DNA of 32,000 nt, from the NCBI RefSeq assembly GCF_003044035.1, contig NZ_NVQC01000008.1:1-32000 (forward strand), written 5' to 3'. A model generated the notes under the pieces. The model did no database searches, was not told the DNA's origin, and saw only the letters and a list, made by a program, of their open reading frames with translations. Each line of letters starts with the position of its first letter. Within the stretch, counting starts at the first letter, position 1. Of this stretch, positions 15,194-19,720 are shown piece after piece. A program made the translations under genes and the position numbers. The stretch is from Candidatus Methylomirabilis limnetica. GTDB taxonomy: Bacteria > Methylomirabilota > Methylomirabilia > Methylomirabilales > Methylomirabilaceae.

Positions 15194-16678
15194 ATGGCGA
15201 TCGAAAAGATCATGGGGACCGAGACCGAGTTGGGGATCAGTGCCAGGGATCCTGCCGGTTTCGACCCCGTGTCCGGATCTAGCCTGTTGATTAATAGTCA
15301 TCGCCCCATCGCTGAGGTGAGGACGATGTGGGACTATGTGGGCGAGAATCCGCTCCTCGATGCCAGAGGATTTGAGGTAAGTGGGGATCACGAAAGGCCA
15401 AGCCAGGCGGATAATCGGACCATCAACAAGCCACTTCGAAACGGCGGCCGTCTCTATGTTGACGGGGCCCATCCCGAATACTCCACGCCGGAATGTACCA
15501 ACGCCCGAGATCTGGTCTGTTACGAGAAGGCCGGCGAGCGGATCTTCGAATTGTGCCTGGCCTCAGCCAACCTGACCCTTCCGGAGCGGCAGCGGATCGT
15601 CATCTATAAGAATAATAGCGACGGAAAAGGGAATAGTTACGGCCATCACGAGAACTACTTGATGGAGCGGCGGGTTCCCTTCGACCAGATCGTCCAGGGA
15701 TTTGCTCCTTTCTTAGTGACCCGTCTGATCTTTGCGGGCGCGGGCAAGGCCGGGGCCGAAAATGGCGCTGACCCTTGTCACTACCAGATCTCTCAACGGG
15801 CCGATTTCTTTGAAAGCTTTATCGGCCTCGACACCATGGCTAAGCGGCCAATCATCAACACCCGCGATGAGCCCCACGCCGACGAGGAGAAGTACCGCCG
15901 CCTGCACGTCATCGTCGGCGACTCCAACATGTCGGAGGTCGCGACCTACCTGAAGGTCGGGACGACCGCCATTGTCCTGGCCATGATAGAGGACGGCTTC
16001 ATCAAGCGCGACCTTACCCTCGAGGACCCCGTGCGGGCCATCAAGGAGATCTCCCACGACGTGACCTGCCGGCGCCGCGTGCGGCTGAAGCGCGGCAAGG
16101 AGTTCTCAGCCATCGAGATCCAGCGCGAGTACCTGGACCTTGCCCGCGAGTACTACCAGGACCGGGAACGGAGTCCCCAGGTGGCCGACCTCCTGGAAAG
16201 GTGGCAGCATGTCCTGGACCAGCTCGCTCTTGACCCGATGACCCTGCACCGCGAGCTCGACTGGGTCATCAAGCACGCGCTCATCACCTCCTACATCAAC
16301 CGCAAGGGCTGCTCTTTCGATGACCATCGCGTCTTCATGCTGGACCTGCAGTACCATGATCTCCGTCGGGACAAGGGACTCTACTTTACCCTCGAGCGCC
16401 AGGGATATGTTGAGCGGATCGTCACCGACGAGGAGATTCTCCTCGCCATGAAGACCCCTCCTCCGGATACCCGGGCCTACTTCCGCGGGATGTGCCTCCA
16501 GAAGTATCCCGACGAGGTCTATGGGACGAGCTGGAGTTCGGTCGTTTTTGATACCGGAGAGGCTTCGGTAAAACGAGTTCCCATGGTCGATCCGTTGAGG
16601 GGCACGCAGAAGTTGACGGCCGAGGTACTGGAACGCTCTGATACTGCCGCGGAGTTATTGGAGAACATCGCGGTCTAA
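15194..16678 (+). CDS. dop: Pup deamidase/depupylase Dop
   Basis: It is a member of the carboxylate-amine ligase family with PafA ([28 protein letters not shown], HENY). Relative to the 452-aa paralog at 18362 it carries the roughly 35-40 aa Dop-loop-like insertion ([34 protein letters not shown]). Its 494 aa fit Dop rather than PafA. Confidence 0.9.
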   Translation: [494 protein letters not shown]

Positions 16679-16706
16679 CGCAAACGCGCTCCATTGATGG
16701 ATACTG

Positions 16707-17528
16707 ATGCCCTTACTTGCCGACTTTATGGATCCTGGATCGAGCTTTTTTGACCTGCTTCGGCAGAGTCGGTCGGATCTTCTACCACAGATGCAGATCA
16801 AGCTAGAAGGACTTTCGCAAGCCGAGAACCGGGAGCTGAAGGAGAGCCCTCACGGAACCACCATCCTGGCCCTGAAGTACCGGGATGGGGCGATCATCGC
16901 TGGAGATCGGCGGGCGACCGAGGGTTTCCAGATCTCGTCGCGACGAATCGAGAAGGTGTTCAAGGCGGATGACCACTCAGCCATCGCCATTGCGGGCGTC
17001 GCCGGTCCATGCATCGAGATGGCCAAACTGTTTGAAGTTGAACTCAGCCACTATGAAAAGCTGGAGGGTGTGACACTTTCGTTGGAGGGAAAGGCGAATA
17101 AGTTATCGCAGATGGTCAAGGCCAACCTCCCGATGGCGATGCAAGGACTGGTGGTGATCCCTATCTTTGTCGGTTACGACGTAAGAGGCGGTAAGGGCAA
17201 GATCTTCAAATACGACGTGACAGGCGGCAGGTACGAGGAAACAGATTACTATGCCACAGGCTCCGGCGGGAAAGATGCCCGTTCCACCATGAAGAAGCTC
17301 TATCGGACCGATTTGACCGAGGAGGAGGCGATAGCAGTCGGGCTGGAGGCGCTGATTGACGCAGCAGAGGAGGATGTCGGGACCGGTGGTCCGGACTTTG
17401 TTCGTGGAGTGTTTCCTACGGTCAAGCTGGCTGTCATGACGGGCCTGCAGGATGTGCCGGAGGCCCGCATCAGGGAGATCTGCCAGGCTATCATAGATCG
17501 CCGCAGGGAAGTCGAGCGAGGAGCATAA
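16707..17528 (+). CDS. prcB: 20S proteasome beta subunit PrcB (with propeptide)
   Basis: The propeptide contains SSFFDLLRQSRSDLLP, which I recall as similar to the M. tuberculosis PrcB propeptide. The predicted cleavage site and catalytic Thr1 are at HG/TTILALKYRDGAIIAGDRRAT. Confidence 0.95.
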   Translation: MPLLADFMDPGSSFFDLLRQSRSDLLPQMQIKLEGLSQAENRELKESPHGTTILALKYRDGAIIAGDRRATEGFQISSRRIEKVFKADDHSAIAIAGVAGPCIEMAKLFEVELSHYEKLEGVTLSLEGKANKLSQMVKANLPMAMQGLVVIPIFVGYDVRGGKGKIFKYDVTGGRYEETDYYATGSGGKDARSTMKKLYRTDLTEEEAIAVGLEALIDAAEEDVGTGGPDFVRGVFPTVKLAVMTGLQDVPEARIREICQAIIDRRREVERGA

Positions 17529-18222: not shown

Positions 18223-18361
18223 TACTTGATGGGCATCCTATACTCTACGTCATTCTCGCTCCCCTCGCGTCATTACCGAAAGTCCTCCCCCTAGCTTCTC
18301 CTGGCCAAATTCGATTGACCATCGCAGGCCCTTCCGATAGGATCGAATTGGAGCAATTGCA

Positions 18362-19720
18362 ATGCAAGAACGTATCCTTGGGCTGGAGAGCGAATACGGT
18401 CTGATCTCCTCCTCGGGCGGGGGACGGGTGAGCTTGTCGGTTGAAAGCGCCTTGGGCTATCTCTTTGAGAAGGTGGTGTCACGCCAGCGCGGGACAAATG
18501 ACTTCCTGAGAAACGGCGCGCGCCTCTATCAGGATACCGGCTGTCACCCTGAGTACGCGACCCCAGAGTGCGATAACTCGCGGGACTTGGTTATCCACGA
18601 CAAAGCGGGCGAGCGGATCGTGGAGGAGTTGCTACTGGGTGCCGAACAGAAGCTCCGCGAAAACGGCATCTACTGCGATATCTACATCTTCAAGAATAAT
18701 ACCGACTCGGTCGGGAATACGTACGGCTGTCACGAGAACTACCTGGTGCAGCGCGATGTGAGCTTCCACAAGCTCGCAGAGCAATTGATCCCATTCTTCG
18801 TCACGCGCCAGGTATTCGCGGGCGCAGGTAAGGTACTCCGAACGCGAATGGGGAACCACTACTATATCTCACAGCGGGCGCAGCACATCTATCAGGAGAT
18901 ATCGGGTGCGACGACCAGTTCACGCGGTATCATCAACACCCGCGATGAGCCCCACGCCGACGAGGAGAAGTACCGCCGCCTGCACGTCATCGTCGGCGAC
19001 TCCAACATGTCGGAGGTCGCGACCTACCTGAAGGTCGGGACGACCGCCATTGTCCTGGCCATGATAGAGGACGGCTTCATCAAGCGCGACCTTACCCTCG
19101 AGGACCCCGTGCGGGCCATCAAGGAGATCTCCCACGACGTGACCTGCCGGCGCCGCGTGCGGCTCAAGCGTGGCAAGGAGTTCTCGGCCGTCGAGATCCA
19201 GCGCGAGTACCTGGACCTTGCCCGCGAGTACTACCAGGACCGGGAACGGAGTCCCCAGGTGACCGACCTCCTGGAAAGGTGGCAGTATGTCCTGGACCAG
19301 CTCGCTCTTGACCCGATGACGCTGCACCGCGAGCTCGACTGGGTCATCAAGCACGCGCTCATCACCTCCTATATCAACCGCAAGGGCTGCTCTTTCGATG
19401 ACCAGCGCGTCTTCATGCTGGACCTGCAGTACCATGACATTAAGCGAACCCGCGGACTGTACTACCTCATGCTGCAGGGTGGGCTGATCGATCGGGTGAT
19501 CACAGAGGGTGAGATCGAGACGGCCATGACGACGCCGCCGCAGACGACCAGGGCCAAGGTGCGAAGCGATTTTATCAAATACGCGACAGAGAGGAACAAG
19601 TCATATGATGTGGGCTGGAGTTACCTGAAGCTGAACGATCGGTATCAGCGTACCATCCTATGTAAGGATCCGTTCAAGGCCTGGGATCCGCGTGTGGATG
19701 AGCTGATCGGTTTGTCGTAA
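18362..19720 (+). CDS. pafA: Pup-protein ligase PafA
   Basis: It is 452 aa and lacks the Dop loop. Motifs are [29 protein letters not shown] and CHENYLV. It sits after prcBA, as in actinobacterial loci. Confidence 0.9.
   Translation: [452 protein letters not shown]

Follow-up and report, generated by a model that had tools for sequence, protein, structure and literature searches.

A 509-bp segment shared by dop and pafA points to recurrent gene conversion across the Methylomirabilota

We analysed a 32,000-nucleotide stretch of the genome of Candidatus Methylomirabilis limnetica (contig NZ_NVQC01000008.1, positions 1 to 32,000, forward strand), referred to below as the window. It carries a proteasome locus in which two paralogous genes, dop (predicted depupylase/deamidase) and pafA (predicted Pup ligase), share an almost identical internal block of 509 bp between strongly diverged flanks. 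We propose that this block reflects recurrent ectopic, non-reciprocal gene conversion of a fixed dop/pafA segment across the Methylomirabilota (candidate division NC10), a reading to which we assign a probability of about 0.9. Comparisons between genomes show the homogenisation of the block, its recurrence, its common boundaries, a mosaic ancestry and a raised GC content at third codon positions (GC3); the recombination process is what we read from them.

The homogenised block and its recurrence

In the window, the dop copy of the block lies at 15851..16359 (+ strand; Dop amino acids 220-388) and the pafA copy at 18929..19437 (+ strand; PafA amino acids 190-358). At a constant offset of 3078 nt, the copies differ at 9 of 509 positions (98.2% identity), and a self-blastn of the window recovered this pair at identical coordinates. 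The differences fall at 0-based block positions 236, 242, 257, 261, 333, 357, 392, 443 and 476, five of them synonymous and four non-synonymous (I/V, A/T, H/Y and H/Q). None is located in the first 236 nt, for which the probability is 0.0037 under uniformity, and an ungapped comparison therefore gives 100% identity between 15851..16086 in dop and 18929..19164 in pafA (both on the + strand). This nested arrangement, with 0/236 mismatches followed by 9/273, is probably the trace of a most recent, shorter conversion.

An earlier sequence-only reading of this DNA had described a block with 98% identity at this offset, identical over its first 236 bp and encoding about 169 amino acids with 4 differences; each of these values was reproduced. 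It had also called the genes opposed paralogs. That description holds for their functions only, since both genes lie on the + strand and the two block copies are direct repeats.

Identity falls sharply outside the block, as had been noted by eye. The Dop and PafA proteins are 97.6% identical within it, 46% identical on its N-terminal side and 28-36% identical on its C-terminal side. At the nucleotide level, the aligned flanks of the two window genes retain about 55-60% identity and become unalignable at the alpha-loop; mismatches number 9/507 in the block versus 278/609 in the aligned flanks (Fisher p = 1e-75). The difference extends to synonymous sites, with a synonymous divergence (dS) of 0.044 in the block versus 3.5 and 1.6 (saturated) in the flanks. 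The proposal that gene conversion, rather than purifying selection or chance, produced the block is thus borne out by its homogenised synonymous sites and sharp boundaries.

The same segment is homogenised in related genomes. Relatives were obtained from a scan of one genome per species, in which the closest loci belonged to metagenome-assembled genomes (MAGs) of the Methylomirabilota. Fifteen genomes of this phylum, window included, carry dop and pafA on one contig and form the sample. Block identity between the two genes is 91-100% in 11 of the 15 genomes and 74-83% in the other four. Five genomes have 0/509 mismatches (L002, L003, L006, L009 and L014), four have 1/509 (L007, L010, L012 and L015), and L021 has 46/509. 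The lower values are found in L013 (about 83%), L011 (80.6%), L017 (79%) and L004 (74%). In L013, a nested tract is again visible at the 5' end, where 124 of 125 positions are identical, with about 80% identity beyond. In a further MAG, L075, a 1-nt indel in one copy defeats ungapped counts, and blastn gives 95.7% identity over 583 nt including flanks.

The outer edges of the block coincide within a few bases in all 15 genomes. With the N of the NTRDEP motif as origin, mismatches on the left end at -7 or -8 and those on the right begin at +503 to +516. In the nearest outgroup, KSB3/Moduliflexus (L022, L024 and L025), the block regions of dop and pafA are 54-59% identical. The corresponding protein identity is 40-49% in KSB3, Acidimicrobiaceae and Streptomyces, where the phenomenon is absent; the Streptomyces value is 45%, compared with 98% in the window.

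High identity within genomes is not accompanied by high identity between them. The block is about 75% identical (range 64-93%) between the 15 genomes, similar to the flanks (71-82%), and is therefore not simply conserved. Inside genomes, by contrast, dop and pafA are on average 93.7% identical in the block and 57-60% in the flanks.

Neighbour-joining trees with Jukes-Cantor distances were built from the codon alignment for the N part (amino acids 77-219), the C part (amino acids 389-450) and the block. In the N- and C-part trees, Dop and PafA separate into clean clades with mirrored branching. In the block tree, the two copies of each NC10 genome are sisters in 15/15 cases, with bootstrap values of 87-100 in 14 of them, whereas the outgroup sequences group by gene. 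Such sister pairs require conversion after each sampled split, and hence a recurrent process rather than one event.

The closest relative with both genes (L077/L078, Dop 95% identical to the window's in amino acids) allows a finer view. The two L077 copies differ from each other at 24 sites, and the window copies differ from those of L077 at 33-38. Twenty sites set the two window copies apart from the two of L077 and represent mutations copied across after the lineages split. The orthologue dS between the window and L077 is 0.23-0.39, compared with 0.044 between the paralogous blocks of the window. Among the nine window differences, two are derived in dop, five are derived in pafA and two are also polymorphic in the relative. 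The ratio of non-synonymous to synonymous divergence (dN/dS) between the window and L077 is about 0.04-0.14, and the family-specific flanks are intact and under purifying selection.

Taken as a gene-conversion tract, the block follows the pattern expected from textbook concerted evolution. The claim of a recent recombination event therefore stands as far as conversion is concerned, but not as a single recent event in this genome, since 14 further genomes share the block and its copies cluster by genome. The sequence-only reading had itself named continuous concerted evolution in relatives as an alternative, and the recurrence described above (11/15 genomes at 91-100%, four at 74-83%, common edges) supports it.

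One locus outside this sample also has similar paralogue blocks. In L018 (blocks at 6663 and 10058; MAG 'bacterium JZ-2.bins.100', Dop 61% identical to the window's), they share 73% amino-acid identity, and pafA is cut by the contig end. Homogenisation may accordingly be older than, or reach past, the core NC10 genomes. Two candidates for conversion in other phyla were uninformative: P0141, a PafA-like protein with a Dop-like block, is a stand-alone ligase homologue without a proteasome locus, and P0128 lies on a 2.3-kb contig.

Ancestry, position and proposed mechanism

The ancestry of the block was scored by log-odds against profiles of 22 outgroup Dop and 16 outgroup PafA sequences. The N part scored +98 in the Dop copy and -83 in the PafA copy, and the C part +42 and -23, respectively. 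In the block, both copies scored about -8, compared with +50 for outgroup Dop and -23 for outgroup PafA in the same region. Sub-stretches alternate, with amino acids 245-268 and 331-388 mildly Dop-like and amino acids 269-330 PafA-like. On this basis, we rejected a simple transfer of dop into pafA or of pafA into dop. The sequence-only reading had proposed to identify the donor by phylogenies with Dop and PafA from related genomes; no single donor emerges. The block is instead a mosaic of weakly Dop-like and PafA-like stretches without a single donor, as expected after many bidirectional exchanges.

The base composition of the block is also distinctive. GC3 is 0.905 in both copies, 0.68-0.73 in the dop and pafA flanks and 0.64-0.74 in ten further window genes. 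The contrast extends to the whole sample of 15 NC10 genomes, with a GC3 excess of the block over the flanks of 0.076 (Wilcoxon p=0.0002). It is most pronounced in genomes that combine a low background GC3 with nearly identical copies, and least so in L004 and L017, whose copies have drifted. This fits GC-biased gene conversion, although we regard the signal as suggestive only.

Two other origins of the block were considered and rejected. A mobile-element or plasmid origin was not supported, as the sole match in the plasmid database is an ordinary Nonomuraea homologue with 75% identity. A conserved RNA element was likewise rejected, because there were no Rfam matches across the window and conservation of the block between genomes is not raised.

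Aligned to the Dop structure of A. cellulolyticus (PDB 4B0R), the block corresponds to residues 223-394. In an AlphaFold (AF2) model of the window Dop, it comprises a strand at 221-224 (IINTR), the DEPHAD loop, a strand at 234-239 (RRLHVI), helices at 248-266, 279-288, 306-322, 328-351, 356-371 and 378-387, and a hairpin at 295-305. It thus consists of two strands of the active-site cradle and the helical cluster behind them. The block ends at Dop amino acid 388 (394 in A. cellulolyticus), at the end of a helix in the large N-terminal domain and about 35-40 residues short of the C-terminal domain, which has roughly 70 residues in Dop (PMC3511204). The alignment and the model therefore place the block wholly within the N-terminal domain. 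The earlier view of a natural domain swap is retained for a block of the N-terminal domain that would be exchanged between the enzymes, while the suggestion that part of the C-terminal domain is included is not.

The elements that decide between ligase and depupylase lie on either side. The codons of the function-discriminating alpha-loop in dop (15806..15844, + strand; Dop amino acids 205-217) end two codons before the block. This element adopts a loop conformation in Dop (A. cellulolyticus F208-K220) but is helical in PafA (C. glutamicum H188-S200) (PMC8599861). Over the 15 residues at amino acids 205-219, its log-odds are +27.9 in the Dop copy and -21.8 in the PafA copy. Hecht et al. (2020) turned Dop into a ligase with 20 changes, the switch sites being M. 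smegmatis Dop 27-104, the Dop-loop, the alpha-loop (209-221) and S450 (PMC7947786). All of these elements map outside the block, which falls between them. The substrate-site arginines R207 and R218 of PafA (PMC10465538) lie within the first 16 block residues; their motifs, however, are identical in Dop and PafA everywhere, and the first ~25 block residues are conserved in all Dop and PafA proteins. Recurrent copying of the block between both genes implies that it would carry nothing that distinguishes the ligase from the depupylase.

We propose the following mechanism. The two paralogues, on the same strand and 3.1 kb apart in one proteasome operon, would exchange the segment by homologous recombination, presumably of the RecA type and between the direct repeats. 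A mutation arising in one copy would then be either erased or transferred to the other, which is concerted evolution. The window would represent a late stage of such a cycle: the last conversion of the whole block left a dS of about 0.04, and a shorter, newer tract homogenised the first 236 nt.

Once identical, the block may become a self-sustaining "identity island", as it alone would permit heteroduplex formation. No tract extends past codon 220 on the left or about codon 388-392 on the right, and the flanks (55-60% identity) would be too diverged for heteroduplex. The flanks also hold what separates ligase from hydrolase, namely N-terminal active-site residues, the Dop-loop, the alpha-loop and the C-terminal domain. 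Longer tracts that swapped the alpha-loop or C-terminal determinants would presumably be purged by selection. Proximity alone appears to be insufficient, as KSB3 has the same dop-pafA spacing (3.3-3.6 kb) and no conversion.

Alternative readings

Several points weigh against the reading of recurrent gene conversion. Recombination is inferred from sequence comparison, and the fixed boundaries may be set by selection or only by flank divergence. The trees are neighbour-joining trees on Jukes-Cantor distances rather than maximum likelihood trees, and the bootstrap value of the L011 block pair is only 28. The non-converting KSB3 outgroup also has a GC3 excess, smaller in size (+0.03 to +0.1), which is why the GC3 signal was graded as it was. 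The long-read status of the Microflora Danica MAGs discussed below was assumed from the project and from a 5.6-Mb single contig. Finally, the exact 100% identity in the short-read contigs L002, L003, L009, L010 and L012 may be inflated, because an assembler can run twice through one collapsed repeat node.

Among the alternatives, adaptive homogenisation survives best, although we consider it unlikely. According to this explanation, selection favours identical segments, for example because a common partner (Pup or Mpa, for instance) would then meet the same surface on both enzymes. It would account for the persistence of the pattern, with identical boundaries, across a phylum-level lineage, and for the low dN/dS of the block. 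In addition, both enzymes accommodate the same Pup in homologous grooves (PMC8599861). However, an established identical island would be self-sustaining under neutrality, and L004, L011, L013 and L017 keep both genes intact with copies that have drifted to 74-83%. The Pup groove has at least one wall (the S126 loop and H188 of C. glutamicum PafA; PMC5952411) outside the block, and we accordingly do not equate the block with the groove. Actinobacteria and KSB3, moreover, work with 40-49% identity in this region. The four drifted lineages and the outlying groove wall disfavour a strong requirement for identity.

A more elaborate version of this idea is similarly doubtful. The block could be a co-evolving module kept by selection, a common scaffold or docking surface for Pup, Mpa or each other that conversion enforces. 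Alternatively or additionally, some open reading frames (ORFs) that join a Dop N-terminal part, the block and a PafA C-terminal part (DopN/PafC, 481-482 aa) could be real products of lineages that deleted prcBA and run a single Dop/PafA chimera.

A single, recent, one-off conversion confined to this genome is very unlikely. The 98.2% identity of the window copies and their sharp edges would fit such an event, but 14 other NC10 genomes, with Dop proteins only 68-77% identical to the window's, have the same block homogenised with the same edges. The pair of each genome forms its own sister clade, and even L077, with a 95% identical Dop, has an independent pattern.

An assembly or collapse artefact, in which the assembler wrote one copy of the block into the other gene, is extremely unlikely, even though the repeat clearly disturbs assemblies. 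In at least 11 additional NC10 contigs, the sequence breaks off 54-150 nt inside the block or exactly at 510/516 nt; the shorter stops would reflect the overhang that a k-mer graph leaves at a repeat. L073 is a unitig running from repeat to repeat, and its first and last 141 nt are identical. L005 (1377-2888) and L028 (1118-2527) contain hybrid DopN/PafC and PafN/DopC ORFs. L079 (6001-13485) carries an extra loop, with the order dop-prcBA-hybrid-prcBA-pafA and a crossover in the block at nt 155-263. Among the 120 best database homologues of Dop, 49 are hybrids, of which 44 have the DopN/PafC arrangement (481-482 aa) and five the PafN/DopC arrangement (464 aa). These hybrid ORFs (proteins P0016-P0120, L005, L028 and L079) are probably assembler paths through the repeat, and some may reflect prcBA having truly been deleted or duplicated when the direct repeats recombined.

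In the window itself, however, the copies differ at nine sites, seven of which are lineage-specific to one copy, and a collapsed node cannot yield identities of 91%, 95% and 98%. The contig breaks themselves point to a real repeat. The repeat is present in many independent assemblies with 0-1 mismatches in four Microflora Danica MAGs: L006 (OY970067.1, a 5.6-Mb single-contig chromosome), L007, L014 and L015. We take these MAGs to be long-read assemblies in view of the project, and their contig sizes are in line with this. The case for a real repeat rests on these presumed long-read MAGs, together with the window, L021 and L077, each with slightly different copies. The assembly chimera that the sequence-only reading had sought to exclude is therefore not supported.

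Extreme purifying selection or convergence without recombination has a negligible probability: the first ~25 block residues are indeed conserved in all Dop and PafA proteins, but synonymous sites are homogenised as well (dS 0.044 versus >1.5 in the flanks), the block is ~25% diverged between genomes yet identical inside them, and other phyla retain 40-49% amino-acid identity in the region.

The locus and comparison with known systems

The proteasome locus has the order mpa - dop - prcB - prcA - pafA, followed downstream by an M17 aminopeptidase gene. Its first gene, mpa/arc (13214..15037, + strand), encodes a proteasomal AAA+ ATPase with Pfam AAA and Prot_ATP_ID_OB_N/C domains and the C-terminus ...GHYL. 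The gene dop (15194..16678, + strand; 494 aa) is followed by prcB (16707..17528, + strand), encoding the proteasome beta subunit, and prcA (17533..18222, + strand), encoding the alpha subunit. Both subunits match Pfam Proteasome, and their genes sit between the two repeat copies. The gene pafA (18362..19720, + strand) encodes 452 aa.

Both paralogues match Pfam Pup_ligase (566 bits for Dop, 519 for PafA), and each passes the cut-off of its own NCBIfam equivalog while failing that of the other. Dop scores 567 bits on TIGR03688 (cut-off 492.3) and 414.5 on the PafA model (cut-off 551.3). PafA scores 578.3 on TIGR03686 (cut-off 551.3) and 421 on the Dop model (cut-off 492). Dop matches PDB 4B0R with E=8.5e-154. 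Its AF2 model (predicted local distance difference test, pLDDT, 83.7; predicted template modelling score, pTM, 0.89) has template modelling (TM) scores of 0.86-0.93 to 7OXV/4B0R/7OXY and of 0.75-0.81 to PafA structures. The Dop-loop, an insertion of about 40 residues following the first strands (Dop amino acids ~35-76), has no counterpart in PafA in the alignment; the window Dop stretch, with its conserved Trp, aligns to A. cellulolyticus RWDFEEENPLRDARGFE. PafA lacks the Dop-loop and has the PafA-type insertion and a Gly following the catalytic Asp (positions according to Table 1 of PMC7947786). The identities of dop and pafA are firm, with their enzyme activities predicted, and both genes look functional, given that they pass their own equivalog cut-offs and keep their family-specific flanks.

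One residue of Dop deserves mention. At codon 91 (window 15461-15463), the residue that follows the catalytic Asp is Gly (VDGAHPE), in line with the majority consensus of the 23 closest homologues. Actinobacterial Dop carries a highly conserved His there (M. smegmatis H96), one of the sites at which Hecht et al. introduced the Gly of PafA (PMC7947786). Thus, NC10 Dop already resembles PafA at this site.

A search for pup gave no candidate: across all reading frames of the 32-kb window, no ORF terminates in GGQ or GGE, and nothing Pup-like was found upstream of mpa. The dop-prcB gap, where Actinobacteria encode Pup, is only 29 nt (16678-16707). Pup in this lineage must be encoded elsewhere or be atypical.

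The window has other repeated features. A 271-bp intergenic sequence occurs at 670-940 and 12721-12991 with 100% identity, and a third copy lies at 10100-10343 (89%). There is also a related 209-bp pair (197-404 / 952-1160, 87%). The 271-bp repeat has no Rfam match and no terminal inverted repeats, and may be a small dispersed repeat or a mobile-element remnant. At 23526-29782, six tandem paralogous genes of ~300 aa encode ankyrin repeats (Pfam Ank_2, E down to 1e-80), and their DNA contains 99-bp periodic repeats with 70-88% identity. Such an array is unusual for a bacterium and is itself a likely recombination substrate. Upstream of the proteasome locus, and unrelated to the block, genes for an SbcD-like phosphoesterase, a 1172-aa AAA_27/SMC-type ATPase and then a Fic-domain protein occupy 2014-6788 and 7580-9160.

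If gene conversion is the correct reading, nature has performed a chimeragenesis experiment that is replicated across a phylum, in which Dop 220-388 and PafA 190-358 would be freely exchangeable between a ligase and the opposing hydrolase. The exchange of the block would lend independent support to the Hecht et al. (2020) mutational map, with the specificity determinants narrowed to the flanks. It would also provide a clean bacterial case of segmental concerted evolution between antagonistic paralogues, in which fixed boundaries, nested tracts and a possible footprint of GC-biased conversion would be useful for studies of tract limits in prokaryotes. Two warnings follow. Phylogenies of Dop and PafA that include NC10 sequences would be distorted in the block region, and the repeat breaks short-read assemblies, with dozens of hybrid "Dop" proteins in public databases.

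In full-text searches of the available library, no paper connected Dop or PafA with gene conversion or concerted evolution, in agreement with the earlier impression that such tracts had not been described. The only pupylation paper mentioning NC10 reports sporadic homologues there. In the tree of Hecht et al. (2020), Dop and PafA form two clean clades (PMC7947786).

The process itself has well-known counterparts. The tufA/tufB genes of Salmonella and E. coli and the rRNA operons evolve in concert by RecA-dependent gene conversion. As in these systems, the dop and pafA blocks are near-identical including synonymous sites, cluster by genome and point to a process that recurs over long times. However, tuf and rRNA copies are equivalent and homogenised over their full length, whereas dop and pafA share only an internal third and encode enzymes with opposite reactions.

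The primate red/green opsin and globin genes are closer in this respect, with segmental conversion between diverged paralogues in which function-determining sites are preserved. There, as here, neutral parts are homogenised, parts that differ in function remain distinct, and mosaic boundaries are sharp. Those genes are nevertheless eukaryotic, meiotic and arranged in tandem arrays, while dop and pafA belong to a prokaryotic operon, with boundaries conserved throughout the phylum.

Within the Pup system, the site-directed mutagenesis of actinobacterial enzymes by Hecht et al. (2020) indicated the same deciding regions, all of which the natural block excludes; natural chimeras or gene conversion were not reported in that work (PMC7947786). 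Compared with the canonical actinobacterial locus (mpa-dop-pup-prcB-prcA ... pafA), the locus of the window has the same genes in the same order, except that there is no pup between dop and prcB and that pafA follows prcA directly. The dop/pafA block thus appears to be an unreported instance of a known process, in which the internal third of two antagonistic enzymes is homogenised across a phylum within fixed boundaries.

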